64,000 nt of DNA from a virus (lineage: Duplodnaviria > Heunggongvirae > Uroviricota > Caudoviricetes): the IMG/VR virus record IMGVR_UViG_3300028888_000003. One strand, written 5' to 3'. Position numbers and translations under genes: made by a program. The notes under the pieces were generated by a model, which worked only from the letters and a program-made list of their open reading frames with translations, ran no database searches and was not told the origin of the DNA. Shown one piece after another: positions 1,441 to 22,629 of this stretch (the stretch's first letter is position 1; every line of letters begins with the position of its first letter).

Positions 1441-1470
1441 ACAGACACAATAAAGAAGGAGGTCATATTT

Positions 1471-1772: not shown

Positions 1773-1829
1773 TAGACGTATTACGTCTAAAAACCGACTT
1801 GACAAATTAAATGAATTGTGGTATAATAT
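1773..1829 (+). promoter_or_regulatory. palindrome TAGACGTATTACGTCTA + TTGACA/TATAAT promoter
   Basis: palindrome 1773-1789; -35 1798-1803; TGGTATAAT -10. Confidence 0.6.
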
Positions 1830-1857
1830 AGACACAATAAAGAAGGAGGTTAATCGA

Positions 1858-2169: not shown

Positions 2170-2217
2170 ATTATAAAAATTATCGTATAGAATACGGTAA
2201 TTTTATTTTCTATAATT

Positions 2218-2274
2218 TAGACGTCATACGTCTAAAAATAATACTTGACAAATTAAATTTTATATGTTATAATA
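2218..2274 (+). promoter_or_regulatory. palindrome TAGACGTCATACGTCTA + promoter
   Basis: palindrome 2218-2234; TTGACA 2245-2250; TGTTATAAT. Confidence 0.6.
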
Positions 2275-2279
2275 TAGTT

Positions 2280-2368
2280 GTAAGAGAACGAGGGACAGTC
2301 CCGAAGGTTATGCGATGAATTACACATCCGCCGACGGGCGTCACACAGACCTCGCTCTTACTTTTTTT
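2280..2368 (+). ncRNA. candidate promoter-driven small RNA (no ORF)
   Basis: transcript from the 2218 promoter lacks RBS/ORF; 5' GTAAGAGAACGAGG pairs with 3' CCTCGCTCTTAC followed by T7; internal GGGACAGTCCC hairpin. Confidence 0.4.
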
Positions 2369-2377
2369 AGAATTTTT

Positions 2378-2442
2378 TAGACGTAATACGTCTAATTTTT
2401 ATAGATTTTTTTATTGACTTTTTTACTTTATTATGTTATACT
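2378..2442 (+). promoter_or_regulatory. palindrome TAGACGTAATACGTCTA + TTGACT/TGTTATACT promoter
   Basis: palindrome 2378-2394; -35 2413-2418. Confidence 0.5.
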
Positions 2443-2474
2443 TTTATTAGAAAAGTTAAGGGAGGAATTTTCAA

Positions 2475-2576
2475 TGAAAATTACAGACTTTATGGCATCT
2501 CATTTTTATCTTATTATAGGGACTTTTTTCGCATTAATAATGGGAAGTTTAACAATTGATGCCCTTATTCATTAAG
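2475..2576 (+). CDS. small hydrophobic peptide (33 aa)
   Basis: strong RBS AAGGGAGGAATTTTCAATG; MKITDFMASHFYLIIGTFFALIMGSLTIDALIH; below ORF-track size cutoff. Confidence 0.45.
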
Positions 2577-2600
2577 GGCATTTTTCTTTTTCTTAATTTT

Positions 2601-2665
2601 TAGACGTAATACGTCTAAAAAATTTTCCCAAAACTATTGACTTCCCAAAATTATTATGATATAAT
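2601..2665 (+). promoter_or_regulatory. palindrome + TTGACT/TGATATAAT promoter
   Basis: palindrome 2601-2617. Confidence 0.6.
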
Positions 2666-2695
2666 ATAGACACAATAAAGAAAGGAAGTAACAAT

Positions 2696-2935
2696 ATGGA
2701 AAGAGTAACTATTTGTTACAAAACAAAAGAACCGGTTTACTATAACAAAGGAACATCGTATGAAAAAACTTGCGATACTTTTCTTAAAACTCAATGTTTT
2801 ATGGAAAAAGAAGAAGTTGAAAAAATTGTTAAATGGATGAATGAAGAGCATCCCGAAAAAGACAGTCTTGGAAATCCGATTGACTGGGATACAATAGATT
2901 ATTTTTTCGTAAATGTTCAAGAAGAACTTTATTAA
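2696..2935 (+). CDS. hypothetical protein
   Basis: 79-aa ORF, RBS AAAGGAAG, TAA stop. Confidence 0.6.
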   Translation: MERVTICYKTKEPVYYNKGTSYEKTCDTFLKTQCFMEKEEVEKIVKWMNEEHPEKDSLGNPIDWDTIDYFFVNVQEELY

Positions 2936-2991
2936 TAACAATTGTCCGAGAATTTCAAAATGAAATTCTTGGATTTTTTATCAATAGTTTT

Positions 2992-3079
2992 TAGACGTAA
3001 TACGTCTAAAAAATTCTATCTGACGTCTAAAAAAATTCTAAAAAATATTTGACTTTTCCAGAAACTTATGATATAATAC
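2992..3079 (+). promoter_or_regulatory. palindrome + extra half-site + TTGACT/TGATATAAT promoter
   Basis: palindrome 2992-3008, additional TGACGTCTAAAAAA half-site 3021-3034. Confidence 0.6.
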
Positions 3080-3135
3080 TATTGCAATCAAGAAAGATTG
3101 CAAAACAATTTACAAAATCAAGGAGGTTAAAACAA

Positions 3136-3348
3136 ATGAGTTTTAACAAAATAACAGAAGAAGACCGTATTCTCTGGGTTAAGTCAATGAATGAAATAAT
3201 CATAGACGAGGGTGACGAAATACTCTGGTATCGCTGGATTTCAATTGTACCTGATGAACCGCAAGAAGACGATTTCGAGTTCATCGCAAACGACGAAGAA
3301 CTTTGGAATGACTGTTGGAACTTTTTTGAAAAATATTTCTTTTGTTAA
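3136..3348 (+). CDS. hypothetical acidic protein
   Basis: RBS AAGGAGGTTAAAACAAATG; ORF-track start 3049 is inside promoter. Confidence 0.6.
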   Translation: MSFNKITEEDRILWVKSMNEIIIDEGDEILWYRWISIVPDEPQEDDFEFIANDEELWNDCWNFFEKYFFC

Positions 3349-3390
3349 AAGGAGGGACGGGAAACCGTCCCAATTTTTCACAATACTTTT

Positions 3391-3456
3391 TAGACGTAAT
3401 ACGTCTAAAAAATTTTCAGAAAAGTATTGACAAATTAATTGATATATGTTAATATA
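3391..3456 (+). promoter_or_regulatory. palindrome + TTGACA promoter
   Basis: palindrome 3391-3407; -35 3427-3432. Confidence 0.55.
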
Positions 3457-3502
3457 TATATGCAATTAAACAAAACTATAATTTAAAAAGTGAGGTAAAA
3501 TT

Positions 3503-3790
3503 ATGTATTGCAAAATTAGACCGTTAAAATTTATGCCCTATGCCCAGGCGCGCGTTCGTGAGTGGAAATGCGGCGATGTTGATTTAATGAGTTATGAAAC
3601 GCTTGTAATTGCGGTTCGTGACGGCTGGCTTGAATGCACTGGGGTGTATTCAAAAACGACAATGCGTCACATCGGTAACTTTATGCGTGAATTCGGTTTC
3701 GGTGATTATTATACTGCCAGGGATTTATATAAGAATGAACTGAAACTGAATGTTAATACGGGCGAAATTAAAAGCATTCGTGAACCGTAA
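3503..3790 (+). CDS. hypothetical protein, paralog of 1471..1740
   Basis: 95 aa; RBS GTGAGGTAAAATTATG; conserved block with 1471 ORF. Confidence 0.65.
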   Translation: MYCKIRPLKFMPYAQARVREWKCGDVDLMSYETLVIAVRDGWLECTGVYSKTTMRHIGNFMREFGFGDYYTARDLYKNELKLNVNTGEIKSIREP

Positions 3791-3845
3791 AATTAGGGCG
3801 AGATTTATAAAAAAATCTCGCCCGTTATTTTATAGAAAAGTTTTT

Positions 3846-3910
3846 TAGACGTAATACGTCTAAAAAACTTTATAGTTTTTGTTGACAAATTAAAAATAGT
3901 ATGATATAAT
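3846..3910 (+). promoter_or_regulatory. palindrome + TTGACA/TGATATAAT promoter
   Basis: palindrome 3846-3862. Confidence 0.6.
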
Positions 3911-3915
3911 ATAGT

Positions 3916-4040
3916 TGTCAAGGGGGGAGAGATAAGTGAGTTGCTCCTATTGGAAATCAGAAACCTTGTGCACGAGGATAAAGACAGAAACAAGCGTAGG
4001 CGACAAAATCTTCGTAAAAAAGTTGCAAATTTTTTACACT
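3916..4040 (+). ncRNA. candidate small RNA (ORF-less transcript)
   Basis: starts TTGTCAAGGGGGGAGAG, 3' end CTTTCCTCTTGACAAG pairs back and contains the -35 of the next promoter. Confidence 0.4.
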
Positions 4041-4046
4041 TTCCTC

Positions 4047-4076
4047 TTGACAAGCCTAAAAAATTATGATATAATA
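4047..4076 (+). promoter_or_regulatory. TTGACA-17-TGATATAAT promoter (no palindrome)
   Basis: consensus -35/-10. Confidence 0.55.
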
Positions 4077-4081
4077 TAGAT

Positions 4082-4165
4082 GTTGAAAGGTTCCGCTAAG
4101 CTCTTGGTGATTGTGGCGTGATTAAAGCATAGGTAGTTAAGGGGCTATCGCCTTTCAATAAAAGA
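4082..4165 (+). ncRNA. candidate small RNA
   Basis: GTTGAAAGG...CCTTTCAAT closing stem, no ORF, followed by next promoter. Confidence 0.4.
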
Positions 4166-4177
4166 CTTAAAAAACTC

Positions 4178-4206
4178 TTGACAAACTAAAAAATTTATGA
4201 TATAAT
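4178..4206 (+). promoter_or_regulatory. ACTCTTGACAA-17-TATAAT promoter
   Basis: consensus elements. Confidence 0.55.
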
Positions 4207-4232
4207 TTATATAGAAAGTGAGGGAAATCAAA

Positions 4233-4415
4233 ATGAAAATTGCAGAAACCTATAAGTTTGAAAAAATGTATGATAATCTTATTCACAAATACGGATATGA
4301 ACACCCTATTGTAATTCAGTTTGGTTCACTCGCAGAGCGATGGGACAATACAAATTGGAATAAGAAATGTATGGAAATACTCTATCGCACACTTATTGAA
4401 CAAGAAATCTCCTAA
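4233..4415 (+). CDS. hypothetical protein
   Basis: RBS AGTGAGGGAAATCAAAATG; 60 aa. Confidence 0.55.
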   Translation: MKIAETYKFEKMYDNLIHKYGYEHPIVIQFGSLAERWDNTNWNKKCMEILYRTLIEQEIS

Positions 4416-4482
4416 TTGTTTTACCTCCTTTATATATTGTGCGTTAGTCTGGGTTTTGCCCAGACTTTCGCATTGGAGTTTT

Positions 4483-4546
4483 TAGACGTAGTACGTCTAA
4501 TTTAATTTAGAAAAATTATTGACTTTTTACTTATTTATGATATAAT
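4483..4546 (+). promoter_or_regulatory. palindrome TAGACGTAGTACGTCTA + TTGACT promoter
   Basis: palindrome 4483-4499. Confidence 0.6.
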
Positions 4547-4551
4547 ATAAT

Positions 4552-4685
4552 TGTCAAGAGGAAATGACGACCATCGCAAGAAATCTTGTCCGAGTTGCAG
4601 TTAGTAACAGGTGTGTTAGCGAGCACGGAAGCCGACTAATACGGAGAGGACATTTGAAAAATTTTTAAAAACTTTTAAAAAACTC
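4552..4685 (+). ncRNA. candidate small RNA
   Basis: 5' TTGTCAAGAG is exact reverse complement of 3' CTCTTGACAA (which is the -35 of the next promoter); no ORF. Confidence 0.4.
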
Positions 4686-4714
4686 TTGACAAATTAAAAA
4701 AATTATGATATAAT
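4686..4714 (+). promoter_or_regulatory. TTGACA-17-TGATATAAT promoter
   Basis: consensus. Confidence 0.55.
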
Positions 4715-4746
4715 AATTACAGAAATTAAGAAAAGGAGATTTTAAA

Positions 4747-4941
4747 ATGAAAACTTATTATTTAAAATGGTACGATAAAAACGAAGAAAAACTAACAACT
4801 ATACTAATTAATGATAGTCAAAAAAAATTAATTGATTTTATGAGAGAGCATTTTCCAATAGATGATATGCTTTATAATGAAAGTATAAATATAACTATTG
4901 ATAGAGATGAGGAACCATTTTACAACCTTGCTGTTGATTAA
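4747..4941 (+). CDS. hypothetical protein
   Basis: RBS AAAAGGAGATTTTAAAATG; 64 aa. Confidence 0.6.
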   Translation: MKTYYLKWYDKNEEKLTTILINDSQKKLIDFMREHFPIDDMLYNESINITIDRDEEPFYNLAVD

Positions 4942-4990
4942 AAATAAAGTGTAAAGGTTAATATCTTTACACTTTTATTATATTGATTTT

Positions 4991-5056
4991 TAGACGTAAT
5001 ACGTCTAAAAATATTCAGTTTTAATACTTGACTTTTCTAAAAAAATATGATATAAT
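4991..5056 (+). promoter_or_regulatory. palindrome + TTGACT/TGATATAAT promoter
   Basis: palindrome 4991-5007. Confidence 0.6.
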
Positions 5057-5086
5057 GAATTTACAAAAAGAAAAGGAATGATAAAA

Positions 5087-5542
5087 ATGACCGAAATTGA
5101 AAAGGTTTTAGTAAAATTTGTAACTGATATTGACGAAGAACTTTCAGTAACTTTTGAAAAAGACGGATATTATTTTTTAAGTGCTGAAAACTGTATCAAT
5201 ATTGACTTAACAGATTTTGATGACTGCGGTTTTATTCGTCATCTTAAAGAATTTCACAATTGTAATTGGGCTGATAAATTTGATTTACACTTATGGTCAA
5301 TTCTTCACGAAATAGGACATTATGAAACTGAAGATTTACTTGACGAAGATACAGGCGAACAAGAAATTCGTTTTTGGTTATCACTTACTAATAAAGATAT
5401 AAGTCATAATATTAATATTCAAAATGAATATTTTAATCTCACAAGTGAGTATTATGCGACAGATTGGGCAAAAGATTGGATAATAAATCATAAAGAAGAA
5501 GCAAATAAAATTAGTAACTTAATTAAAAATGCGAGAAAATAA
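5087..5542 (+). CDS. hypothetical acidic protein
   Basis: ATG 5087 has proper spacing to AAAAGGAA; ORF-track start 5078 too close to RBS. Confidence 0.55.
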   Translation: MTEIEKVLVKFVTDIDEELSVTFEKDGYYFLSAENCINIDLTDFDDCGFIRHLKEFHNCNWADKFDLHLWSILHEIGHYETEDLLDEDTGEQEIRFWLSLTNKDISHNINIQNEYFNLTSEYYATDWAKDWIINHKEEANKISNLIKNARK

Positions 5543-5568
5543 TCTCGCATTTTGGTTTGCGAGATTTT

Positions 5569-5635
5569 TAGACGTATTACGTCTAAAATTATTATAATTT
5601 AACAATTGACTTTTATATAATTATAGTATATAATA
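5569..5635 (+). promoter_or_regulatory. palindrome + TTGACT promoter
   Basis: palindrome 5569-5585. Confidence 0.55.
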
Positions 5636-5668
5636 TGTATGTAAGAAAGAAAAGAAAGGAAGAAAAAA

Positions 5669-6058
5669 ATGATAATCAAAGCATATCGTATGTTTAGCGA
5701 CCCTTGTCTGATTTATGAAGGAACTAATTACAAAGAGGCAAAAAGAAAAGCCTTTGGACCATTAAAGCAAATAGGGCTTACAGAAAAAAATTATAAGACA
5801 CCCATAATAACTACTACTTGCAAAAGTTATCATAAAGTAATAACTTATTATCCTATCCGTAATCACACCATACAAGCAAAAGAAAATCCAAATTTTTTCT
5901 TTCACTCAATTATTTATTTTGATATTTACTTCAAGGATAAACTTGATGATTATGATATAGGATTAAGAGTCAAAAAAGGTGACCCCTTGGCATACAAATT
6001 AAGAGAAAAAAGAGATATAAAAAATGGAATAACACATTATCCTCGCAAATATTATTAA
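5669..6058 (+). CDS. hypothetical protein
   Basis: RBS GAAAGGAAGAAAAAAATG; 129 aa. Confidence 0.6.
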   Translation: MIIKAYRMFSDPCLIYEGTNYKEAKRKAFGPLKQIGLTEKNYKTPIITTTCKSYHKVITYYPIRNHTIQAKENPNFFFHSIIYFDIYFKDKLDDYDIGLRVKKGDPLAYKLREKRDIKNGITHYPRKYY

Positions 6059-6095
6059 AAGTCCGTTAAATCGGACTTTTATTTTTTATTTATTT

Positions 6096-6160
6096 TAGAC
6101 GTTATACGTCTAAAAAGTTTTCTAAAAACTATTGACAGATTGAAATTATTATGCTATAAT
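6096..6160 (+). promoter_or_regulatory. palindrome TAGACGTTATACGTCTA + TTGACA/TGCTATAAT promoter
   Basis: palindrome 6096-6112; terminator hairpin 6061-6090 just upstream. Confidence 0.6.
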
Positions 6161-6174
6161 AAAATCACAATAAA

Positions 6175-6200
6175 GGTTGCGACTTACCGCAGAGAAAGGA
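6175..6200 (+). promoter_or_regulatory. conserved 5' leader hairpin (stem TGCG/CGCA, loop ACTTACC) + purine-rich RBS
   Basis: GGTTGCGACTTACCGCAGAGAAAGG; same element at 7337, 11364, 15621 with compensatory stem changes. Confidence 0.5.
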
Positions 6201-6208
6201 AAAATATT

Positions 6209-7195
6209 ATGAAAATTACAAACACCCTTGACCTCACCAAAAAGAAAACGGGCGATTGGTCAATCAACGGAAAATTAGTTTCTGTATCTGAAGAGGAAGA
6301 CAATATTCTTATGCAGATTCACAACCGCTACCGCAATATGTATGAGAGCAACAGAGAGGCTGATTTTGCTACAATAAGTGGTATTCTTTCAACTGACCAC
6401 CCCTCTGTCGCACAGATACTCGGTATCGTGACCGAAGCTGTTGCCGAAGCCGTTGAAGCCGAAGCACCAAGAGAACTTACCGCAGAGGAAAAGAAAACGG
6501 CTACACTTGAAGCCATTAAGAAACTTATTTCTTTCTTTACAGAATTTGACTTTGAGCCGAACTACCGTTTTGTAAACACCCTTGCTCTGTCCCTTAAACA
6601 GGGTGAGAAAAAAGCAAAAGATTATATCACAAACTACTTTGAACTTACTGATAGTCCATTCAAAAAAGAAGTCGTGCAGAAAATGAAATCGGCAGAATTT
6701 AAGAGTATTCTCAATGATATTGCTCTTACAGAGCCGACCAAGACCATTAACAATCGTTTTAAACTCTACTATGGCTCACAGGGAACAGGCAAAACTACAA
6801 TCGGTATGAAAGAAACCGATAAGAGATGTATCGTATGTAACTCTTCAATGCTCCCTGCCGACCTTATGGAAGATTTTGTGTTCGTTGACGGAAAGGCAAC
6901 CTTTAAACCCTCATCACTTTGGCGGTGTATGACAGAGGGAAAGCCGATTGTCTTGGACGAAATCAATCTTCTGCCCTTTGATAGTCTGCGTTTCTTACAA
7001 GGCGTTCTTGACGGAAAGGCAAGTTTTGAATACAAGGGCAATACAGTTGAAATCAAAGAGGGTTTCAAAATTATCGGTACTATGAACCTTACTGTTAATG
7101 GTATGACTTACGGTTTGCCCGAACCTCTCGTTGATAGATGTGAGGAAACAAAGAAATTCAAACTGACCGCAAATGACCTCGTAAAAGCAATTTAA
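6209..7195 (+). CDS. MoxR-like AAA+ ATPase
   Basis: Walker A GSQGTGKT, Walker B IVLDEIN, sensor region; start at ATG after AGAGAAAGGAAAAATATT (ORF-track start 6140 is in the leader). Confidence 0.7.
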   Translation: MKITNTLDLTKKKTGDWSINGKLVSVSEEEDNILMQIHNRYRNMYESNREADFATISGILSTDHPSVAQILGIVTEAVAEAVEAEAPRELTAEEKKTATLEAIKKLISFFTEFDFEPNYRFVNTLALSLKQGEKKAKDYITNYFELTDSPFKKEVVQKMKSAEFKSILNDIALTEPTKTINNRFKLYYGSQGTGKTTIGMKETDKRCIVCNSSMLPADLMEDFVFVDGKATFKPSSLWRCMTEGKPIVLDEINLLPFDSLRFLQGVLDGKASFEYKGNTVEIKEGFKIIGTMNLTVNGMTYGLPEPLVDRCEETKKFKLTANDLVKAI

Positions 7196-7257
7196 GAAAA
7201 TTATATAACAGAAAAGAGGGGAGCAATCCCCTCCTTTCTCTTTCCCAAAAAAAGAAT

Positions 7258-7322
7258 TAGACGTCATACGTCTAAAAACTTTTCTATAAAATATTGACAA
7301 ACCACAAAACTTATGATATAAT
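7258..7322 (+). promoter_or_regulatory. palindrome TAGACGTCATACGTCTA + TTGACA/TGATATAAT promoter
   Basis: palindrome 7258-7274. Confidence 0.6.
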
Positions 7323-7336
7323 GTAGTTACAAATTA

Positions 7337-7362
7337 AGGGTTGCGACCTACCGCAGAGAAAG
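7337..7362 (+). promoter_or_regulatory. conserved leader hairpin (loop ACCTACC)
   Basis: GGTTGCGACCTACCGCAGAGAAAGGAAA. Confidence 0.5.
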
Positions 7363-7372
7363 GAAACATATT

Positions 7373-8923
7373 ATGGAAATTACAAAAGGTGAAATCAAGG
7401 AAATTCTTGATACACTCCCTATCGGTTACTATGCCGACAGACCTATTGCCGTAAACATAAGTGAAACAGAGCCAACAAGTTTTTATAACCTTGAAAAAGA
7501 CGAAATCACTTTTGCTTATAGCAACATTGAACAAGCACTCGCAAATGTAGAAGATTTTAACAGAGAAACGGCTATAAGAAGTGTTCTCTATCACGAATTA
7601 AGTCACGCAATTCTCACTCCTCAAAATCTCATACTCACCTCTAAAACGGCAGATATGGTCAATATTTTTGAAGATGAAAGAATTGAAACCTTGCTCAAAG
7701 ACTTTTATCACGATACTGACTTTAAAGGTTTAGTAAAAGCCCTTAATGGTGATTTTACTCCGCAAGATAGTATGGATGCTTTTTTTCAAGTAGTTAGACA
7801 GAGAAAAGGCAAGCCCAAATTTCTTAAAAAAGTAAATGAAATCATTTACAAATATGCTATGCTTGGTCATAATTGTGACGGACACGGCTGTTGGCAAGAT
7901 GGCAGATGGACAATCAATCAGTATGTAGAGGATATTGAAACCCTCTATGACGAAATAGCAAAGGACTTTAATGCTAATCCGCAAGACTATAAAAATCCTC
8001 TCTCAATATCTAATAGTGGCAATGAGAATAGCGATTTTCTTGATGAAAAATCGTGGATAAAAAATGCTATGGAATGCGGTTATTCAAAAGAAGAAGCCGA
8101 AAAACTCTTTGAAGAACTCAAAAAGCATATTGACGGAAATGAAAACGACAACGACAATGAGTATTGCGAAGCCAAAGAGGGCGAAGGCGATACCGAGTGC
8201 AATGGTGAGCAAGACAAAGACCACAATGGTTTTGGTAAACTAATTATTAAAAAAGGTTTTGGCGGTGAAACCATTTCAAACTTGACCGATAAACTTTCCG
8301 CAATTATCTCAATATTTAATAAGAAAAATGCAAGCGGTAGTGCTTTCACAAGTTATAGTGGTGTTATCAATCCTAAATTGTGCGGTAATAATGACTATCG
8401 TTTCTTTGAGAGAAAAGCCGAAGCAAGAGGAAACAATCGTTTTGGTAGTTTGCACCTTACACTTTGGATAGATACAAGCGGTAGTTTTTATACCAATAAA
8501 AACAAAACAAATGCTCTCATAAAATCACTTGAACTCATTGAAAAGAAAAACCCCAATTTTTCCCTTGACGTTGTTCATTGTTCTTGCGGTCAAAGGTTAA
8601 TGCCTAAAAACAATAGGTTTATCGACCCCGATGGTGGCAACCGCCTTACAAACGAGGTTTTTGACCTTTACAGACAGTTACAGAAAGGCAACACATACAA
8701 TTATAATATATTCCTCTTTGACGGCGAGGCTATGCCTGACAGGAATAATGACACAAATACTGCCTTTAACAAAGTTGATTTTAATAACTGTCTATTCATT
8801 TCCGATTATGATAACGAGAGATATTTGAAAACTCTCAAATCGGCACAAGTTATTCTCACAAGCAATTATGTAAATGAACTTTATGATAATGTGTTTACCG
8901 CATTACACAAAGCATTTAGATAA
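7373..8923 (+). CDS. VWA-domain protein with N-terminal HExxH metallopeptidase-like motif
   Basis: LYHELSHAIL (HExxH); MIDAS-like WIDTSGSF; 516 aa; genomic partner of the MoxR-like ATPase. Confidence 0.65.
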   Translation: MEITKGEIKEILDTLPIGYYADRPIAVNISETEPTSFYNLEKDEITFAYSNIEQALANVEDFNRETAIRSVLYHELSHAILTPQNLILTSKTADMVNIFEDERIETLLKDFYHDTDFKGLVKALNGDFTPQDSMDAFFQVVRQRKGKPKFLKKVNEIIYKYAMLGHNCDGHGCWQDGRWTINQYVEDIETLYDEIAKDFNANPQDYKNPLSISNSGNENSDFLDEKSWIKNAMECGYSKEEAEKLFEELKKHIDGNENDNDNEYCEAKEGEGDTECNGEQDKDHNGFGKLIIKKGFGGETISNLTDKLSAIISIFNKKNASGSAFTSYSGVINPKLCGNNDYRFFERKAEARGNNRFGSLHLTLWIDTSGSFYTNKNKTNALIKSLELIEKKNPNFSLDVVHCSCGQRLMPKNNRFIDPDGGNRLTNEVFDLYRQLQKGNTYNYNIFLFDGEAMPDRNNDTNTAFNKVDFNNCLFISDYDNERYLKTLKSAQVILTSNYVNELYDNVFTALHKAFR

Positions 8924-8975
8924 CAGAGAAAAGTGTAAAGGGGAAACCCTTTACACTCTTTTTCTATTACAAATT

Positions 8976-9041
8976 TAGACGTAATACGTCTAAAAAATAC
9001 CATAAAAGTATCTTGACAAATACTTTATAATGTGTTATACT
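8976..9041 (+). promoter_or_regulatory. palindrome + TTGACA promoter
   Basis: palindrome 8976-8992. Confidence 0.55.
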
Positions 9042-9084
9042 AATCTTGTAATCAAGGAGATAATAAAAGAAAGGAAAGAATTAA

Positions 9085-9558
9085 ATGAAACTGTTAATAA
9101 TCTTTATTGTCTTAAATGTGGTCAATGTTATAATGCAGACCGTCAAATCAATAGCAACTCTTAAATGTGGTAAGGTAGTAGCAAGTCTTATCAATGCTAT
9201 AACCTACGGACTTTATACTGTTGTAATTGTATATATGGTTTGCGAATTACCTTTATGGCTGAAAGCCCTCATAATCGGCTTAGCCAATCTTTTCGGTGTT
9301 TACTTTGTTAAATTATTTGAAGAAAAAGTAAGAAAAGATAAACTTTGGAAAGTTGAATGTAATATCAATTCCGAAAATTTCACACAATTTTATGATACAA
9401 TTCGAGGAATAGGCATTCCGTTTAATTTTAATCCGACAAACAATGGTTATATTACTGTAAATCTTTTCTGCGAAACACAAAAAGAAAGTCACACAATAAA
9501 AGAAATCTTAAATAAATTTGATATTAAGTATTTTGTTACTGAAACAAAAACTCTTTGA
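9085..9558 (+). CDS. membrane protein (3 predicted TM helices) with soluble C-terminal domain
   Basis: hydrophobic N-terminal 90 aa; RBS AAAGGAAAG. Confidence 0.55.
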   Translation: MKLLIIFIVLNVVNVIMQTVKSIATLKCGKVVASLINAITYGLYTVVIVYMVCELPLWLKALIIGLANLFGVYFVKLFEEKVRKDKLWKVECNINSENFTQFYDTIRGIGIPFNFNPTNNGYITVNLFCETQKESHTIKEILNKFDIKYFVTETKTL

Positions 9559-10239: not shown

Positions 10240-11109
10240 ATGAATTACGAAAAAAAGGTTGACCGCAGAAAAAAGTATTATTTAATACTTGATTGCGAAA
10301 CCGCAACACTCCCTTGTGCCGAAAGTTATGGTGCAGAGGAAAAGAAAATAATAGCAATAGCAAAACCCCTTATCTATGATTTAGGTTGGCAGATTATTGA
10401 CCGCAAAGGAAAAGTGTATAGCAGAAAATCTTATTTGATTTCTGAAATATTTTCCGTTCCCTCAATTTTCAATACCGCCTATTACGCAAGCAAAAGACCT
10501 ATCTATCTTGACCGCCTTGCAAAAAACGAAACAGTATTGACCGATTGGAAAACGGCTACGGCAGACCTCGTTACCGATATGGAAAAGGTCGAAAGCATAG
10601 GTGCTTATAATTCTATGTTTGATTTCAAAAAAGCAATACCCTTTACAGAGTTGTATATCAACAAACTGTATTCGCAAGACTATTATGAGTGGGAAAAAAT
10701 GCAAACCGCAATTTGTGAGCATATTGCAAAAGGCAATTACTCCACAAAAAGCAGTAAAAACTTTGAACACGATTTGTTCCGTTTTCGTGGCAAGGAATAC
10801 CCTCTCTTTGATATATGGGGATTGAGTTGTCAGCACATACTTAATAATGACAAGTATAAGCAGACTTGTCTTGACAATTCGTGGCGGACCGCAAGTGGTA
10901 AGTATTTCAAAACCTCTGCTGAAACTTGTTATCGCTTTTTCAAAGGCAACAATGAATTTGAAGAAAGCCACACCGCCATTGACGATAGCACGATTGAAAG
11001 TGAACTGTTCACCGAAATTCTCAAAAGAACAAATAACAATTTTGCTATGGGCATAACTTATTTTCCGTTCCGTATTCTCGGCAAGGTTGAGGAATTTTCC
11101 TCGCCTTGA
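10240..11109 (+). CDS. DnaQ-like 3'-5' exonuclease (DEDDh)
   Basis: Exo I LILDCETA, Exo II YNSMFDF, Exo III HTAIDDS. Confidence 0.7.
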   Translation: MNYEKKVDRRKKYYLILDCETATLPCAESYGAEEKKIIAIAKPLIYDLGWQIIDRKGKVYSRKSYLISEIFSVPSIFNTAYYASKRPIYLDRLAKNETVLTDWKTATADLVTDMEKVESIGAYNSMFDFKKAIPFTELYINKLYSQDYYEWEKMQTAICEHIAKGNYSTKSSKNFEHDLFRFRGKEYPLFDIWGLSCQHILNNDKYKQTCLDNSWRTASGKYFKTSAETCYRFFKGNNEFEESHTAIDDSTIESELFTEILKRTNNNFAMGITYFPFRILGKVEEFSSP

Positions 11110-13995: not shown

Positions 13996-14166
13996 AATGC
14001 TTGAATATTTATGGGTAGTTATTTGTGATGAACAAATTATTTTTGTATCGCCAAATATTAAAGATTGCATTCAATATCAAAATGCCTTCTATGAAAATAC
14101 AGGAGAAGATACAGAAATAGAACAATTTTTCTACAAGAAAAAACTTCAATGGTATCTTGAAGATTA
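13996..14166 (+). CDS. hypothetical protein (56 aa)
   Basis: RBS GGGAGGAATTAAAATG; below ORF-track cutoff. Confidence 0.45.
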
Positions 14167-14200
14167 AAAGTCCGATAAATCGGACTTTTTATTTTATATA
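14163..14200. terminator. bidirectional intrinsic terminator
   Basis: AAAAGTCCGATAAATCGGACTTTTTTATTTT (A-run/hairpin/T-run). Confidence 0.6.
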
Positions 14201-14205
14201 TTTTT

Positions 14206-14222
14206 TAGACGTCATACGTCTA
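14206..14222. promoter_or_regulatory. palindrome TAGACGTCATACGTCTA without downstream + promoter; extra half-site 14256-14268
   Basis: sits inside the transcript of the minus-strand promoter at 14288-14316. Confidence 0.5.
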
Positions 14223-14287
14223 ATTCCAAAAAGTCAAATTTTCTCACCAAATTTTTAGACGTCACCAGAAAAAGGTATCCCTTCCCC

Positions 14288-14316
14288 ATTATACCATATT
14301 CAAACAAAAAAGTCAA
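14288..14316 (-). promoter_or_regulatory. minus-strand TTGACT-17-TATAAT promoter
   Basis: rc: CTTGACTTTTTTGTTTGAATATGGTATAATGGGG. Confidence 0.5.
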
Positions 14317-14339
14317 GAGAAAAATTATAAATAAATTGT

Positions 14340-14400
14340 GAACTTTATTACATTACCATACTACCATATTACCACACTATCATATCACCGCATACCACTA
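14340..14400. repeat. seven tandem degenerate 8-mers (CCAYAYTA), iteron-like
   Basis: ccatacta ccatatta ccacacta tcatatca ccgcatac cactacac cacttcac. Confidence 0.6.
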
Positions 14401-14527
14401 CACCACTTCACGCAGGCGACACCACTGTATAGGAAGCTGCGACCTAAGGGAGCTGCGAGCTATGACCCAAGGCGGCTGCAAATTTTAAGACTACGAGCTG
14501 CGCCGCCACGCCCTTACGAATACGGGG

Positions 14528-14552
14528 CTGCGCTGCACTAAAATTTGACAAG
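14528..14552. promoter_or_regulatory. 25-bp perfect palindrome AAAATTTGACAAGCTGTCAAATTTT
   Basis: two inverted TTGACA motifs; operator-like. Confidence 0.5.
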
Positions 14553-14572
14553 CTGTCAAATTTTAAGAAGCT

Positions 14573-14608
14573 GCATATATATACATATATATATATATAT
14601 ATATCCCC
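14573..14608. repeat. (TA)n / AT-only tract
   Basis: atatatacatatatatatatatatatat. Confidence 0.7.
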
Positions 14609-14612
14609 TTTT

Positions 14613-14641
14613 ATTATACCATAAATTTATTTAAAAATCAA
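14613..14641 (-). promoter_or_regulatory. minus-strand class-B promoter (TTGATTTTTAAATAAATTTATGGTATAAT)
   Basis: rc match to late promoter consensus. Confidence 0.5.
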
Positions 14642-14723
14642 ATTTTCGGCGCACACAACTTTTCATATACAAAATTACTAAATAAATTTCTAAAAAAGAA
14701 TTAAAATTTGGTTATTTTACGAA

Positions 14724-14753
14724 TTGATTTTTTTCAAAATTTGTGATATAATA
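14724..14753 (+). promoter_or_regulatory. class-B promoter TTGATTTTTTTCAAAATTTGTGATATAATATAT
   Basis: same consensus as minus-strand late promoters. Confidence 0.6.
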
Positions 14754-14802
14754 TATTTAGAAAATAAAAAAGAAAGAAAATTTGAAAGGGGAATTTTTCT
14801 AT

Positions 14803-15147
14803 ATGGATAACAAAACTAAAGCCAAGATACGCGCAGAGATGGTAGCGAAGCTCTTTGAAATGTGGAAGGCAGAGAACGACGACATCGGCATGATCACCTC
14901 GAACTCTTTTAACTTCCCCATAGTAGCACCCAACGGTGAAGAGGGCTGGGCTAAAATCACTCTCACCATCACCAACGATGAAGATGACATGGGTTACATG
15001 GAGCGCGAGCAGTACGCTGATAAAGTAAAAGAGGCAGCTGCGCGCAAAGCAAAGGCAGAAGCTGATAAAGCAGCCAAGATCAAGCGCGACGAAGAGCGTC
15101 GGGCGCAGAAGCTCGCCAAAGCAAATAAACCGGCAACCGAAAATTGA
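14803..15147 (+). CDS. hypothetical protein with K/A/E-rich tail; paralog of 9718..10053
   Basis: ATG 14803 after GAAAGGGGAATTTTTCTAT; ITSNSFNFPIVAPNGEEGW block. Confidence 0.65.
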   Translation: MDNKTKAKIRAEMVAKLFEMWKAENDDIGMITSNSFNFPIVAPNGEEGWAKITLTITNDEDDMGYMEREQYADKVKEAAARKAKAEADKAAKIKRDEERRAQKLAKANKPATEN

Positions 15148-15172
15148 TTTTTTTATAAATTTATAGTATAAT
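15144..15172 (+). promoter_or_regulatory. class-B promoter
   Basis: TTGATTTTTTTATAAATTTATAGTATAATATATATAG. Confidence 0.6.
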
Positions 15173-15180
15173 ATATATAG

Positions 15181-15325
15181 AAGGTGAGAGAAAAATCCTT
15201 CCTCAAATTGTAAGTATTCGCGCAGTTAGGTGTTGCTTAGAAAGCAATTTGAGAGTGGGCTTAGGGAGCTGGTTCTCCACTATAAATAACTGAACCGCCA
15301 CCTTTTCTTAAAAGTAAGAAATAAA
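15181..15325 (+). ncRNA. candidate class-B-driven non-coding RNA
   Basis: starts AAGGTGAGAGAAAAATCC like other class-B leaders but no ORF; ends before next promoter. Confidence 0.4.
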
Positions 15326-15327
15326 AA

Positions 15328-15357
15328 TTTGAAAAAGTTTTAAATTTCTGATATAAT
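15328..15357 (+). promoter_or_regulatory. class-B promoter
   Basis: TTGAAAAAGTTTTAAATTTCTGATATAATATATATAG. Confidence 0.6.
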
Positions 15358-15365
15358 ATATATAG

Positions 15366-15528
15366 AAAGTGAGAGAGAAATCTAAAACTTTCAAGGTCGC
15401 GCGGAGCGGCCTCCCGAGAAAGCCGGGTAGTTATAGGCTATTCGCCCGCCGTGGTTCCCTGCACTCCGCCCTTCCTTTCCATATATATTATAACAAGCCG
15501 GTTCTTATCAAAGAAATAAGAAAAGAAA
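15366..15528 (+). ncRNA. candidate structured non-coding RNA (GC-rich core)
   Basis: GCGGAG...CTCCGC and CCCG-AGAAAGC-CGGG stems; ORF-track 15369-15605 starts with GTG and has no RBS. Confidence 0.4.
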
Positions 15529-15530
15529 AA

Positions 15531-15560
15531 TTGATTTTTTCTAAAAAGTTTGTTATAATA
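15531..15560 (+). promoter_or_regulatory. class-B promoter
   Basis: TTGATTTTTTCTAAAAAGTTTGTTATAATATATATAG. Confidence 0.6.
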
Positions 15561-15620
15561 TATATAGAAAGTGAGAGAGAAATAAAAAGTAACTCGCACT
15601 TCTAAAAATAAAAAACTTTT

Positions 15621-15645
15621 GGGTCGTGACCTACCACGAGAAAGA
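15621..15645 (+). promoter_or_regulatory. conserved leader hairpin (stem TCGTG/CACGA, loop ACCTAC)
   Basis: compensatory changes relative to 6175 and 7337 copies. Confidence 0.5.
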
Positions 15646-15653
15646 GGAATATT

Positions 15654-15995
15654 ATGACTAACAGAGAATTCTACACCGCAGTTATCAACGCAAACGTAAA
15701 CGCTGAGCTTACCGAGTTCGCGCAGACCGCAATTGAGAAGCTCGACACTGCCAACGCTAAGAAAGCAGAGAAGCTCGCTGCTAAGAGAGCCGAAGAGCAG
15801 CCTATCTATGACGCTCTTGCCGCTGTTCTGACCGAAGAGCCGCAGACCGCTTCTGATCTCGCCGCTCAGGTTCCCGAGATTACTTCTGTTCAGAAAGCAA
15901 GCTCAATGCTTCGCAAGCTTGTTGATCTCGGCGTCGCAGTTTCTACTGACCTTAAGGTAAAGGGTAGAACTGCAAAGGGTTATGCGAAAGCGTAA
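15654..15995 (+). CDS. hypothetical protein; paralog of 11408..11800
   Basis: 113 aa; RBS AGAAAGAGGAATATTATG. Confidence 0.6.
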   Translation: MTNREFYTAVINANVNAELTEFAQTAIEKLDTANAKKAEKLAAKRAEEQPIYDALAAVLTEEPQTASDLAAQVPEITSVQKASSMLRKLVDLGVAVSTDLKVKGRTAKGYAKA

Positions 15996-16045
15996 TCCCT
16001 TCCCTACGGGTTAGCCTTTTTCAACGGAATCACATAAATAGACGA

Positions 16046-16080
16046 GAGAGTACAGCTTCGCTGTACTCTTTTGTCTTATG
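16046..16080. terminator. bidirectional terminator
   Basis: AGAGAGTACAGCTTCGCTGTACTCTTTTGTCTT. Confidence 0.6.
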
Positions 16081-16083
16081 TTG

Positions 16084-16204
16084 TTCTGCGCGACCGTCAT
16101 CTCGAGCGTTCATAAGCGTCACTCTTGTACGTACATAGGCGAGGTCGCCGCACAACTACAAATTTTAAACCCCTATATTTATATTTATATTTCCCCTTTA
16201 ATTA
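16084..16204 (-). ncRNA. candidate minus-strand non-coding RNA
   Basis: from minus class-B promoter 16210-16238 to terminator at 16046-16080; contains GGTCGCGCAGAA motif. Confidence 0.35.
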
Positions 16205-16209
16205 TAACA

Positions 16210-16238
16210 AAAATTTTAAAAAAAATCAAACTTTTTTC
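16210..16238 (-). promoter_or_regulatory. minus-strand class-B promoter
   Basis: rc TTGATTTTTTTTAAAATTTTTGTTATAAT. Confidence 0.5.
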
Positions 16239-16261
16239 GCAATTTTCCAGTAGTTTTTAGA

Positions 16262-16500
16262 AAAATTCTTATATTTTATCTACATATACTCGATTTTAAG
16301 GGCAATTTTTAGAAAATTCGTAGGGTTTTTCTCAAAAAAGTTATAAGTTTTACTAAATTTACCGAAAATTTACCATTTTTTTAGCGGTTTTATTCGGAAT
16401 TTTAGGAATTTTTGCCCGAAATTTTTCAAATTTTATCCGAAATTTTTAGAATTTTAAGAAAAATTTTAGATTTTTAAAATTTGCTTCATAGTGAAAATTT
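16262..16500. repeat. AT-rich degenerate tandem repeats (GAAATTTTT / CCGAAAATTT units)
   Basis: about 10 units; no ORFs. Confidence 0.55.
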
Positions 16501-16688
16501 GGCAGCAACCTAAAACTGCATTAAACGCCATCAATTCCCTTTAAACACCTTAACCCTCGAACGCTACTACCTCTGATAGTTCCAAAATTGACAGAGCCTT
16601 TCCACTCCTACCCAAGACCATTCAGTCGGCGAAACTGACCGTATGGCTCACGACGTTTTTCCCCTTTACGTTATAGTATATACTTATA

Positions 16689-16712
16689 AGTATTACTTAT
16701 ATGTATAATGTA
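16689..16712. repeat. TATACTTATAAGTATTACTTATAT direct repeat (copy 1; copy 2 at 16889-16912; palindromic core TACTTATAAGTA also at 17158)
   Basis: exact 24-bp duplication in gene-free region. Confidence 0.6.
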
Positions 16713-17295
16713 AACGTCTCCGACTCGAAATTCGGGGAGTAAGCCCCGTTTCGAATTAGTATGCTCACTACGTTCGCTTACGTTTATATATATGTATATG
16801 TAGATGTTGTTGTGATACGTTGGACTGCGCGACCACCATCGCCAGAAGTCATAACGGTTAGCTGCGCTGCCCCGTTACGTATATTTTATACTTATAAGTA
16901 TTACTTATATATTATACTTATACGTAATGGACGTATACGGCGCTTTCGGCTATCGCCGAAATCGCGGAGCGGAGCGCCCCGCTCGCTGCGTTCGCTGGAG
17001 AATTTAGACAAAAAAATGGAGCGCTTGAGCGCTCGCATTTTTCTGCAAAATTCACACAGCTCTTCTGCTTTTGGTTGTTAAGTTAGGAAGTGTTACGCTG
17101 TATCTTTACGTATATATTTTATTTATATATAATACGTATATATAATACGTATACGTAATACTTATAAGTTTTCCTTTTTGTATAAATGTGAACTTTTCTA
17201 AAAGGTTCGTATAGATTTTTCCGTCAAAATGGTAAAAATTTTTGGAATTTCTTTTACTTTGTTCTGCGCGACCATGATGGTTGATGGTGATTTAC

Positions 17296-17330
17296 CTAAA
17301 AATATAGGACAGAGTATAACTCTGTCCCGT
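17296..17330. terminator. bidirectional terminator at end of minus-strand late block
   Basis: GGACAGAGTATAACTCTGTCCCGTCTTTT. Confidence 0.6.
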
Positions 17331-17333
17331 CTT

Positions 17334-21169: not shown

Positions 21170-21245
21170 TGGCAGAGGATACCCGACTCGAACGGATACT
21201 GTAACAGTCAAAGTGTTATGTGCTTACCAATTACACCAATCCTCT
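21170..21245 (-). tRNA. tRNA-Gln(UUG)
   Basis: AGAGGATTGGTGTAATTGGTAAGCACATAACACTTTGACTGTTACAGTATCCGTTCGAGTCGGGTATCCTCTGCCA; CCA encoded. Confidence 0.75.
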
Positions 21246-21448
21246 ATACTCGTGCGAGCGACCACCTAAAAGTTTGGACTCTCACCGTGTCTTTCGTTTT
21301 ATCTCGCATTATGGGCAGAATTTGAACCATTAACCCTGGGTCGAAGCAGTTTTATAACGACGCGTACTAAAACTTTTCTCATAAAAATACGCTACGGGAG
21401 GAATTACCGTTATTATACCGCTATTCTTAAACAGGTTTACGGCACCTC

Positions 21449-21522
21449 TGGCACCGGCTAAAGGAATTGCACCCCTATCTTCGCTTTTGGAGAGCGCTGT
21501 TCTACTGTTGAACTAAGCCGAT
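21449..21522 (-). tRNA. tRNA-Trp(CCA)
   Basis: acceptor ATCGGCT/AGCCGGT, anticodon loop CTCCAAA, CCA encoded; T-stem has two G.U pairs. Confidence 0.55.
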
Positions 21523-21634
21523 ATAAGTGGTATGGCTTTTTCAAACACGGTCCGCATTGTTAAGAGGCGCTGCTTGCTTGTCGTACCATACCGAGACACC
21601 TTACTGTATCTACGACCCACTCGCGCGAAGTGGA

Positions 21635-21708
21635 ACTTGGAGCGAGTAATGGGGATTGAACCCACGCCCTCAGTGTGGAAGACTGAAATACTACCATTAT
21701 ACTATACT
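21635..21708 (-). tRNA. tRNA-Gly(UCC)
   Basis: GCGAGTA...TCAGT CTTCCAC ACTGA...GTGGGTTCAATCCCCAT TACTCGC T CCA. Confidence 0.7.
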
Positions 21709-21711
21709 CGC

Positions 21712-21783
21712 GTATGGCGCTCCGGGTAGGACTTGAACCTACAACCATCGGCTTAACAGGCCGCTCCGCCATTGAGCTACCGA
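21712..21783 (-). tRNA. tRNA-Asn(GUU)-like
   Basis: acceptor GCTTCGG/CCGGAGC, loop CTGTTAA, T-arm GTAGGTTCAAGTCCTAC; D/anticodon stem assignment ambiguous. Confidence 0.5.
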
Positions 21784-21857
21784 AGCAAATAAGGTGGGAG
21801 GAATTACCACTATTATCACGCTCGTTTCTGAATTTACAGCCTACGCTTCGCTACCTC

Positions 21858-21933
21858 TGGTGCAAGAGATAGGGATTGAACCTATGCGACCTGGATTTTC
21901 AGTCCAGTGCTCTACCATCTGAGCTACCCTTGC
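21858..21933 (-). tRNA. tRNA-Phe(GAA)
   Basis: GCAAGGGTAGCTCAGATGGTAGAGCACTGGACTGAAAATCCAGGTCGCATAGGTTCAATCCCTATCTCTTGCACCA. Confidence 0.8.
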
Positions 21934-21997
21934 ATTTAATTTAATTGCTATTAGTAAAAACAGGAAGAACCACGTGAAGGTTGCAATTATTCTTCCC

Positions 21998-22069
21998 TGA
22001 CGTCACGGAGAATCGAACTCCGGTTTTAAGAATGAAAATCTTAGGTCCTGACCGCTAGACGATGACGCC
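21998..22069 (-). tRNA. tRNA-Glu(UUC)
   Basis: GGCGTCATCGTCTAGCGGTCAGGACCTAAGATTTTCATTCTTAAAACCGGAGTTCGATTCTCCGTGACGTCA. Confidence 0.7.
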
Positions 22070-22554
22070 ATATTTCTGGAGTGCGGTGTTTTCTATGCAA
22101 CCAGATTATTCCGCACCAGTTAGGTGGTTTTTAGGAAATTTTTCCTTGTGACCGCCAAACACAAAGTTTGTTTAGAAGGCAGTTGCATCTTTGTCGCCTC
22201 GAAGCATAGTCGACTATCAGCGCTTCTATACAGATAAGTTTAACTGACATTCTGCTTGGTCAGCACTACCTATAATCGTCATTATTATTAGTGCTCTGTA
22301 TTTTATTTAACGACTTTGACAGTTCCCAGTCGGGTCCCAACATTTATATAGCGTGTAGTTCCGAATACCGCTTTTCTGAGGTTTAACGACCTTTTCAGAT
22401 ATTGGTCGGACTCAGTCATTTATATAGCGCCTACCAACTACGTCAGCGCTGCAAGTTTACTTTGCCTTCTTTTATAGCGTTTGCCACTTATGCCACATAT
22501 CACGACCGCGCCTCGTGCCGATGGTAGTTGAACTTGCAAATCCATGTTAACGCT

Positions 22555-22629
22555 TGGTTGCAGAGGTGGGAATCGAACCCACGTTGTCCAGTTTATGAGG
22601 CTGGACAGGTAACCAACAACCTCTCTGCC
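22555..22629 (-). tRNA. tRNA-Met/Ile2(CAU)-like
   Basis: T-arm GTGGGTTCGATTCCCAC, 3' CTCTGCA-A-CCA, anticodon loop CTCATAA; 5' acceptor/D-arm pairing imperfect. Confidence 0.45.

Follow-up and report, generated by a model that had tools for sequence, protein, structure and literature searches.

We analyzed a 64,000-nucleotide stretch of viral DNA (Caudoviricetes; IMG/VR record IMGVR_UViG_3300028888_000003), referred to here as the window, with a focus on positions 14163-17333, which we call the hub. Plus-strand genes run to 14167 and the first minus-strand gene ends at 17334, so the hub is a convergent junction; it lies 14 kb from the left end of the window and 47 kb from the right end. The preliminary description of this DNA had presented the junction as about 3 kb without credible open reading frames (ORFs), and as a candidate replication origin or regulatory hub. 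In our analysis, the core of the hub is predicted to be a chain of short units, each with its own promoter and delimited by hairpin terminators. Two ORF-free stretches, 14190-14720 (0.53 kb) and 16080-17330 (1.25 kb), flank this chain.

The notion of a gene-free junction failed on two conserved genes within the chain, ORF-A and ORF-B. Among genomes about 82% identical, substitutions in both fall at third codon positions, a pattern indicating that they are real genes. ORF-A (14803-15147, plus strand, 114 amino acids) follows a class-M promoter at 14724-14752 (plus strand; repeat family D2) that is 90-94% conserved. It has 18 database homologues with 40-91% identity, conserved motifs and the invariant motif GMI.SNSFNFPIV. 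The protein has no assigned function, and searches returned neither a family match nor a fold match (model predicted local distance difference test, pLDDT, 72). ORF-B (15654-15995, plus strand, 113 amino acids) is better represented, with 90 database homologues (31-96% identity), conserved motifs and a distribution over 22 viral and 80 metagenome loci. Its model (pLDDT 89) consists of a long helix followed by a winged helix-turn-helix, and its fold matches are winged helix-turn-helix, PadR and MarR-like domains, making ORF-B a putative dimeric DNA-binding protein. The ORF-B promoter and its conserved 5' untranslated region occupy 15531-15653 on the plus strand, where a hairpin at 15624-15639 abuts the ribosome-binding site. 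Genes of the ORF-B family occur as several paralogues per genome, with 182 distinct upstream regions among the loci examined. Their 5' untranslated region (15566-15653 in the window; many loci) is often conserved, with the hairpin ending directly at the ribosome-binding site GAGAAAGAGG; this hairpin covaries among paralogues and relatives by eye, with no formal count.

Four promoter copies start at 14724, 15144, 15329 and 15531 on the plus strand. They are strong promoters of the sigma-70 type (TTGAtt/TTGAAA-17-TATAAT, with an extended TG in three of the four) and are predicted to head four units, namely ORF-A, ORF-less unit 1, ORF-less unit 2 and ORF-B. Three of the copies have the leader ATATATAGAA(A/G)GTGAGAG in common; in the copy before ORF-A it is ATATTTAGAAAATAAAAAAG. 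Unit 1 (about 125 nt; 15144-15322 with its promoter, plus strand) behaves as a swappable cassette: it is kept at 89% identity with its stems in the related loci L237 and L238, and its slot in L104 and L108 holds unrelated sequence beneath a similar promoter. Unit 2 (15329-15500 with its promoter, plus strand) has a structured core at 15393-15475. Its 25 predicted pairs are 96% paired across six variants, and 8 of these pairs change on both sides, a number reached by none of 500 shuffles and compared with 0-2 in slid controls. Several of the pairs are G-U, and therefore the opposite strand could not form the fold. This covariation indicates that unit 2 is a structured small RNA specific to the plus strand. 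Folding of single sequences of units 1 and 2 was no better than that of shuffles (z = -1.2 and -0.9, respectively). A tRNA-like identity for unit 2 was considered and rejected, as ARAGORN and a transfer RNA (tRNA) model found nothing and the cloverleaf was replaced by the covariation-supported two-hairpin fold. No Rfam family reached its gathering score in the hub (best E-value 0.098), and the only Rfam matches in the window were tRNAs.

Similar arrangements were seen elsewhere in the clade. Across its loci we counted 26 distinct tandem class-M promoter units with promoters no more than 260 nt apart, 24 of them without an ORF of more than 27 codons; examples are L001 9073, L003 10803, L006 9849, L070 3206 and, on the minus strand, L090 9951. 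The 5' leader of these tandem-promoter units, GAAAGUGAGAG, forms pairs with a 3' anti-leader, and the two vary in concert (GUGAAGG/CCUUCAC; GAGGGAAGGAG/CUCCUCCCUC).

All three bidirectional terminators proposed earlier are present: a hairpin at 14166-14189 with a 10-bp stem and T runs on both sides, kept in L103, L104 and L108; a conserved hairpin with a 17-bp stem at 16040-16076; and the hairpin of the first minus-strand gene at 17306-17328. The leftmost is predicted to close both the plus-strand gene block and minus-strand ORF-less RNAs. A further terminator-like GC hairpin at 17019-17034, missing from the preliminary description, has T runs on both strands and is 98% conserved in L104. The proposed minus-strand promoters were likewise recovered, at 14316-14288, 14641-14613 and 16229-16201, scoring 10-11 of 12 with an extended -10. 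Their predicted transcripts start with AAAGGGGA, followed in two of the three cases by TA-rich tracts, and these are the only promoters in the window that start with GGGGA. The term antisense does not suit the resulting RNAs, which are antisense to no gene and overlap terminators only.

The leftmost of these promoters (14288-14316, minus strand; TTGACT-17-TATAAT with TG) is 87% conserved; its predicted transcript, which starts GGGGAAGGGA and runs for about 115 nt to 14166, has no ORF. Degenerate 8-bp repeats (TACCAYAY) at 14346-14400 form the least conserved block, only 61-64% identical in close relatives. Here seven tandem 8-mers had been described at 14340-14400; the repeat exists, but as 3.9 copies of period 8 at 14354-14384 with 78% matches. 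An array of seven (R)AGCTGC(G) motifs follows at 14431-14575 with irregular spacings of 16, 23, 22, 30, 5 and 38 bp. GCTGC occurs seven times on the plus strand at 14436-14570, against 0.42 per kb in the window. The reported clusters of eight GCAGC and eight GGTA are thus real but smaller, at seven GCTGC and four TACC (GGTA on the minus strand). Arrays of AGCTGC lie at the same relative place in L003, L006, L106 and many other loci, and AAATTTGAC palindromes co-occur with the array in relatives. The palindrome AAAATTTGACA-AGC-TGTCAAATTTT at 14540-14564 is 96% conserved and equivalent to two back-to-back class-M -35 boxes; formerly placed at 14528 as a perfect 25-bp palindrome, it consists of two 11-nt arms separated by AGC, which is not palindromic. 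A (TA)n tract (14575-14606), variable in length among relatives, comes directly after the minus-strand promoter at 14641. It had been given as a 36-bp AT-only tract but measures 32 nt, with a C at 14584, and is the second least stable 40-bp segment of the window. From this promoter (14613-14641, minus strand), with AAAAGGGGA(TA)n after it, transcription would enter the GCTGC array; L106 retains the module. Repeat D6 joins the module at 14613-14641 to 16174-16241 with 79% identity.

In the right stretch, a second promoter-AAAGGGGA-TA-rich module occupies 16174-16229 on the minus strand, with the promoter (16229-16201) followed by AAAGGGGAAATATAAATATAAATATA. The RNA from 16194 to 16046 folds with z = -4.8; L108 lacks 16114-16173. 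Upstream of this promoter is an AAATTT-rich stretch (16236-16500) of 21-bp periodicity with equivalents in L003, L006 and L106, and the degenerate AAATTT repeats described earlier were found again with period 21 at 16388-16476. Its in-phase A/T tracts raise the possibility of curved DNA. The ORF-free block X (16565-16655) is nearly invariant over its aligned part in four close genomes; an 11-nt insertion at its right edge in relatives lowers the block identity to 78-80%. No clear strand-specific covariation was detected in block X. Three AT-palindrome clusters follow. Cluster 1 (TACTTATAAGTA and others; 16673-16712) is the ninth least stable 40-bp segment of the window, and cluster 2 (16875-16930), an imperfect 59-bp palindrome designated I13, contains the least stable. 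Cluster 3, of the TACGTATACGTA type, lies at 17104-17172, and the TACGTA clusters described earlier coincide with it. The 24-bp exact direct repeat is also present, at 16679 and 16887 instead of 16689 and 16889. Overall, most features listed in the preliminary description exist, with several coordinates off by 2-12 bases.

The right stretch also contains three copies of a bipartite motif on the minus strand, ATGAC/ATCAC followed after 14 nt by GTCGCGCA(GAAC), at 16075-16115 (copy 1, ATGAA-N14-GTCGCGCAGAAC), 16812-16853 (copy 2) and 17251-17292 (copy 3). The last lies just downstream of the first minus-strand gene's terminator and is 90-96% conserved. The offset of 19 nt is fixed in the window and in L103, L108, L237 and L106. 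Three copies of TTCTGCGCGACC had been reported, of which those at 16084 and 17262 are exact and the third, at 16823, reads GACTGCGCGACC. The core GGTCGCGCAG occurs seven times in the window (16086, 16825, 17264, 18777, 35515, 44208 and 46109), always on the minus strand and along minus-strand genes; with up to one mismatch, this core gives 13 window matches versus 0.44 expected. Outside the hub, the motif is preceded by terminators and followed by genes or sigma-70-type promoters, and its orientation matches that of the downstream gene. At about 9150 of L315, a matching 139-kb contig described below, a copy lies on the plus strand and again points as the downstream genes do. This placement makes the motif a candidate phage-specific promoter that a sigma factor or polymerase encoded by the phage would recognize; no promoter is known for YonO, the polymerase of SPbeta. 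A Chi-like reading of the GGTGGTCGCGCAG motif was rejected, as the motif is long, bipartite and intergenic and follows gene orientation. A scan of viral contigs with a 15-mer of the motif was non-specific. Just upstream of yonK in SPbeta, the 11-mer TTGTACGTAAA equals the 3' part of the motif copy in L315; other copies match this 11-mer only over GTACGTAAAA or less.

Two promoter classes were distinguished across the window. The plus block has about 20 promoters of the TTGACA type, and the minus block and the hub use AAAATTTGA(A/T)TTTTT ... TGnTATAAT, usually followed by a leader of the (T/A)ATTATAGAAA type. Sites of the latter class lie at 14744, 15349 and 15551 on the plus strand and at 18731, 19810, 23949, 24710, 36517, 38432, 49119, 50686 and 51918 on the minus strand. 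The four plus-strand units of the hub thus carry a promoter-plus-leader sequence found throughout the minus-strand block. The exact 26-mer TATAATATATATAGAAAGTGAGAGAG, comprising promoter plus leader, occurs in at least 80 IMG/VR viral contigs, mostly of 60-150 kb, where it precedes proteins, tRNAs and ORF-less RNAs. It stands before tRNA genes in L025, L035 and L083, and before long, structured-looking, unassigned ORF-less sequences (e.g., ...GGTTTCAACAGGTAAACC...) in L026, L037, L077, L080, L044 and L087.

The plus block also carries a 20-bp palindrome, TTTAGACGT(N2)TACGTCTAAA, in 20 copies between 1386 and 14206 (e.g., 1386, 1773, 2218 ... 13324), with none in the minus block. In 19 of the 20 cases it lies about 10-35 bp upstream of the -35 box of a near-consensus TTGACA-17-TGnTATAAT promoter. 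The last copy, TTTAGACGTCATACGTCTAA, falls within the hub at 14206-14226 with a half site at 14256 (feature 14206-14266), and no plus-strand promoter follows it. The palindrome TTTAGACGT..ACGTCTAAA looks like the operator of an early-gene regulon. The sequence CGAAC-N4-GTTCG, which is the Gram-positive LexA-box consensus, is absent from the window. In one branch of relatives, loci of about 10 kb contain 10-14 copies each (L001, L003 and L006; also L034, L082, L086 and others), where it apparently takes the operator's place; a reading as an SOS site in the hub was rejected.

We then compared the hub across relatives. Across four genomes that share about 82% identity, the values are 65-98% for the non-coding blocks and 77-94% for ORF-A and ORF-B. 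Promoters, palindromes, motif copies and terminators are best kept in close relatives; the 8-mer repeat and several spacers are poorly conserved (43-65%). In the more distant L106, L003 and L006 the sequences have drifted and the order of elements is kept: the AGCTGC array with AAATTTGAC palindromes; a promoter, a short ORF-less unit and a promoter; an ORF-B-like gene and terminator; an AAATTT-rich stretch; GC-richer segments separated by TATACGTATA; an AT-palindrome cluster; and a variant of the motif. By feature count, these elements co-localize once per locus in about 25 loci, and within the 64-kb window the set is found only at 14-17.3 kb. Only three elements are still conserved at the DNA level in far relatives, namely the promoters, the beginning of ORF-B and, together with about 100 nt on its right side, AT cluster 3. 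The latter persists in about 12 distant loci whose flanks cannot be aligned, making it the main non-coding element kept at this distance besides the promoters; cluster 2 is matched in 3-4 far loci. The hub tolerates the insertion and deletion of whole units, as in the deletion in L108 and an extra gene in L106. This gene of L106 (about 75% identical) encodes 73 amino acids at 10818-11039, between the AAATTT stretch and the AT palindromes, and has its own class-M promoter. Lack of conservation of the repeats in relatives had been named as grounds for dismissing the earlier reading; since the elements and their order are conserved, these grounds do not apply.

The window comes from an uncultured gut or rumen phage of 139 kb, and its gene content is phage-like. 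Over 10,961 bases checked, it is 100% identical to a 139,084-bp ENA contig (L315; ERZ27257205, k141_6637418). This contig extends the view to the left of the window start (L315 locus 1-9555), where minus-strand late genes with YonB, YonD_N and YonG_N domains follow the SPbeta gene order. On the basis of these domains in the flanking late genes, the phage is distantly SPbeta-like and not T5-like. A divergent junction of only about 160 bp adjoins the yon-like late genes about 0.8 kb left of the window start, and a 603-amino-acid gene takes the position of the SPbeta terminase gene yonF, about 18-20 kb from the hub; the assignment is by gene order only, and the gene itself matches no terminase. 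Accessory genes make up the 30 largest ORFs of the window (AAA ATPase, PD-(D/E)XK nuclease, phosphoesterases, ClpP, PhoH, RNA ligase and an SPFH protein), and no polymerase, helicase, primase, initiator, terminase or integrase was recognized among them. The PhoH and RNA ligase proteins show only a distant relationship to their counterparts in large Firmicutes siphoviruses. Blastn found no DNA-level match of the region to cultured phages, two large window proteins had no tblastn match, and SPbeta (1-85 kb searched) showed no similarity to the hub, ORF-A or ORF-B. Uncultured relatives are plentiful. A prophage or host context was rejected, as matches in genome collections were phage-like contigs binned into metagenome-assembled genomes with inconsistent taxonomy.

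Other features of the window and of SPbeta were recorded in passing. Seven clustered tRNA genes (Gln, Trp, Gly, Asn, Phe, Glu and Met) occupy 21170-22629 on the minus strand, and a separate tRNA-Leu(tag) lies at 48450-48526, also on the minus strand. At 6140-8923, a gene for an AAA_5 (MoxR/dynein-like) ATPase is followed by one for a 516-amino-acid protein with only a faint metallopeptidase match, a pair kept in L315, L103 and L108. In L326 9153-10833 (SPbeta 59,153-60,833, minus strand), the only Rfam match is a 64-nt DUF3800-VIII motif.

We propose, giving it about an even chance, that the region is a conserved, transcription-dense control and small-RNA hub at which two gene blocks converge. 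The earlier label of regulatory hub is supported by conserved promoters, terminators, small genes, structured RNA and palindromes, in an architecture that occurs once per locus in many relatives, and this conservation argues for a real, functional control region. In our proposal, the left stretch would be read leftwards from two promoters, one of which passes through the (TA)n tract into the GCTGC array. The right stretch would be read leftwards from one sigma-70-type promoter and the three bipartite motif copies, across the three AT-palindrome clusters. Palindromes, AAATTTGAC boxes and the GCTGC array may be binding sites for phage regulators, with ORF-B or its paralogues as obvious candidates. 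The hub would coordinate expression of the operator-controlled plus block with that of the minus block and would yield small non-coding RNAs. Several points weigh against this proposal. All promoters and terminators of the hub are predictions from sequence, and the proteins binding its sites are candidates only. The ORF-less RNAs of the minus strand show no clear strand-specific covariation, with alifold energies and compensatory counts nearly the same on both strands, so their product may not matter. The label itself is broad, and alone it leaves unexplained the AT palindromes and TA tracts directly downstream of promoters, which are typical of transcription-activated origins.

That last point leads to an alternative that we regard as possible but rather unlikely, in which the hub holds a transcription-activated origin: a non-coding RNA from a strong promoter would invade an AT-rich tract or palindrome and prime the leading strand. 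In Lactococcus phage c2, replication is proposed to be primed by PE1-T, a non-coding transcript made between two early promoters, and c2-like phages carry three unrelated ori types at the same slot (PMC7150918). The hub similarly has ORF-less units between tandem strong promoters, with unit 1 swapped as a cassette, and ORF-less sequence also follows the minus-strand promoters at 14641 and 16229. Unit 2 offers a structured transcript with covariation, the two conserved promoter-AAAGGGGA-TA-rich modules offer AT-rich elements, and AT palindromes follow each bipartite motif copy. The hub is moreover single-copy and conserved, encodes a predicted DNA-binding protein (ORF-B) and contains 5 of the 12 least stable 40-bp segments of the window; equally unstable AT-rich segments, however, occur at other promoters. 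Both gene blocks are transcribed towards the hub, so departing forks would meet transcription head-on, whereas the c2 origin lies between divergent blocks. The cumulative GC skew, proposed earlier as a check, has its maximum at the hub, the polarity of a terminus, although it is confounded by gene orientation. The preliminary argument that iterons beside an AT-rich element form a classic origin found no support. The (TA)n tract at 14575-14606 could be the adjacent unwinding element, but the repeats have cores of 6-9 bp (AGCTGC, TACCAYAY) at irregular spacings of 5-38 bp, too short and irregular for iterons, which in origins of the lambda, SPP1 and theta-plasmid type comprise at least three direct repeats of about 17-22 bp in regular helical phase. 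Such origins also have an initiator gene that spans or adjoins the repeats. A search for a cognate initiator (Rep, O, gp38 or DnaA-like) returned none in ORF-A, ORF-B, the neighboring ORFs or the 30 largest window ORFs, and those 30 likewise lack a recognizable polymerase, helicase or primase. DnaA boxes (TTWTNCACA) number 13 in the window, with 9.4 expected, and none lies inside 14163-17333.

The tandem promoters also admit a broader view, which we consider improbable: the promoter-flanked ORF-less cassettes would form a new class of phage small RNAs, each with a variable core enclosed by the shared leader GAAAGUGAGAG and a covarying 3' anti-leader. Their role would be that of swappable origin-priming RNAs or of trans-acting anti-leaders that pair with the identical leader on many mRNAs of the phage itself, with the GCTGC-array RNA and the AT palindromes in the same circuit. 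Less probable again is a cis-acting signal for DNA handling, either an injection-stop or entry site (T5-like iss) or a packaging or terminus site. The picture is superficially that of the untranslated repeat region of T5-like phages, and next to the hub lies a block of small, strongly promoted early genes. Yet paired DnaA boxes, a conserved hallmark of iss, are absent from the hub. Packaging in SPbeta starts in the divergent yonP-yonR region by the late operon, and a packaging site of this type would be expected between divergent genes where the late operon begins, near terminase; the hub is convergent, the counterpart junction is the one of about 160 bp left of the window, and the gene at the yonF position is distant. 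The long contigs of relatives do not end consistently at the hub, and physical genome ends here were rejected because those ends scatter. We give slightly less credence still to ORF-free stretches without a function of their own, made up of promoters, terminators, AT-rich spacer and decaying remnants of small genes. The low conservation of the 8-mer repeat and several spacers, the frequent indels and the cassette swaps, including the L108 deletion and the L106 gene, would fit such decay. Pure spacer is nevertheless unlikely because non-coding blocks are conserved: block X, the palindromes, the GCTGC array and AT cluster 3 are kept as well as genes or better, cluster 3 persists in distant loci despite its unalignable flanks, and the order of elements is kept across the clade.

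The hub is the most elaborate conserved non-coding region of its clade, a group of uncultured gut and rumen phages of roughly 60-150 kb. It provides testable handles in the form of promoter classes, an operator regulon, a candidate phage-specific promoter, a winged-helix family and new small RNAs. If no origin lies here, the hub would serve as a compact model for the separation and timing of two convergent transcription programs in a large phage. If the origin does lie here, RNA-primed cassette-type origins would extend from small lactococcal phages to large SPbeta-like phages.

Finally, we compared the hub with known systems. The primary origin of T7 and oriF/oriG of T4 combine a promoter with a downstream AT-rich unwinding element, similar to the c2 mechanism. 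Hub promoters, both host-type and phage-specific-looking, are likewise followed immediately by TA-rich tracts or AT palindromes with no ORF; the difference is that the bipartite motif is only a candidate promoter here. At the left edge of the hub, and only there, the operator palindrome resembles the SPBRE/MrpR system of SPbeta as a short repeated element in many phage gene promoter regions, but its sequence is another and it has 20 copies versus about 10 (PMC10516654). By architecture, the closest described look-alike of the whole hub is the T5 injection-stop region. The untranslated repeat region 3/iss of T5-like phages is a conserved untranslated maze of repeats and palindromes with DnaA-box pairs (bioRxiv 10.1101/866236). 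In those phages it is situated in a long terminal repeat beside the A1/A2 pre-early genes. The likeness of more than 1 kb of ORF-free DNA with ordered, conserved repeats and palindromes is seen in 16080-17330, and 14190-14720 alone falls short of it. Unlike iss, the hub has no DnaA-box pairs, contains genes and many promoters, and belongs to an SPbeta-like phage. The Ceduovirus (c2) origin lies between divergent blocks and spans a few hundred bp, whereas the hub is a convergent 3.2-kb region without sequence similarity to it. In both, nevertheless, the first promoter is followed by neither an ORF nor a ribosome-binding site, and unrelated cassettes occupy one slot; a further likeness is a structured non-coding transcript, proposed as the active agent in c2 (PMC7150918).

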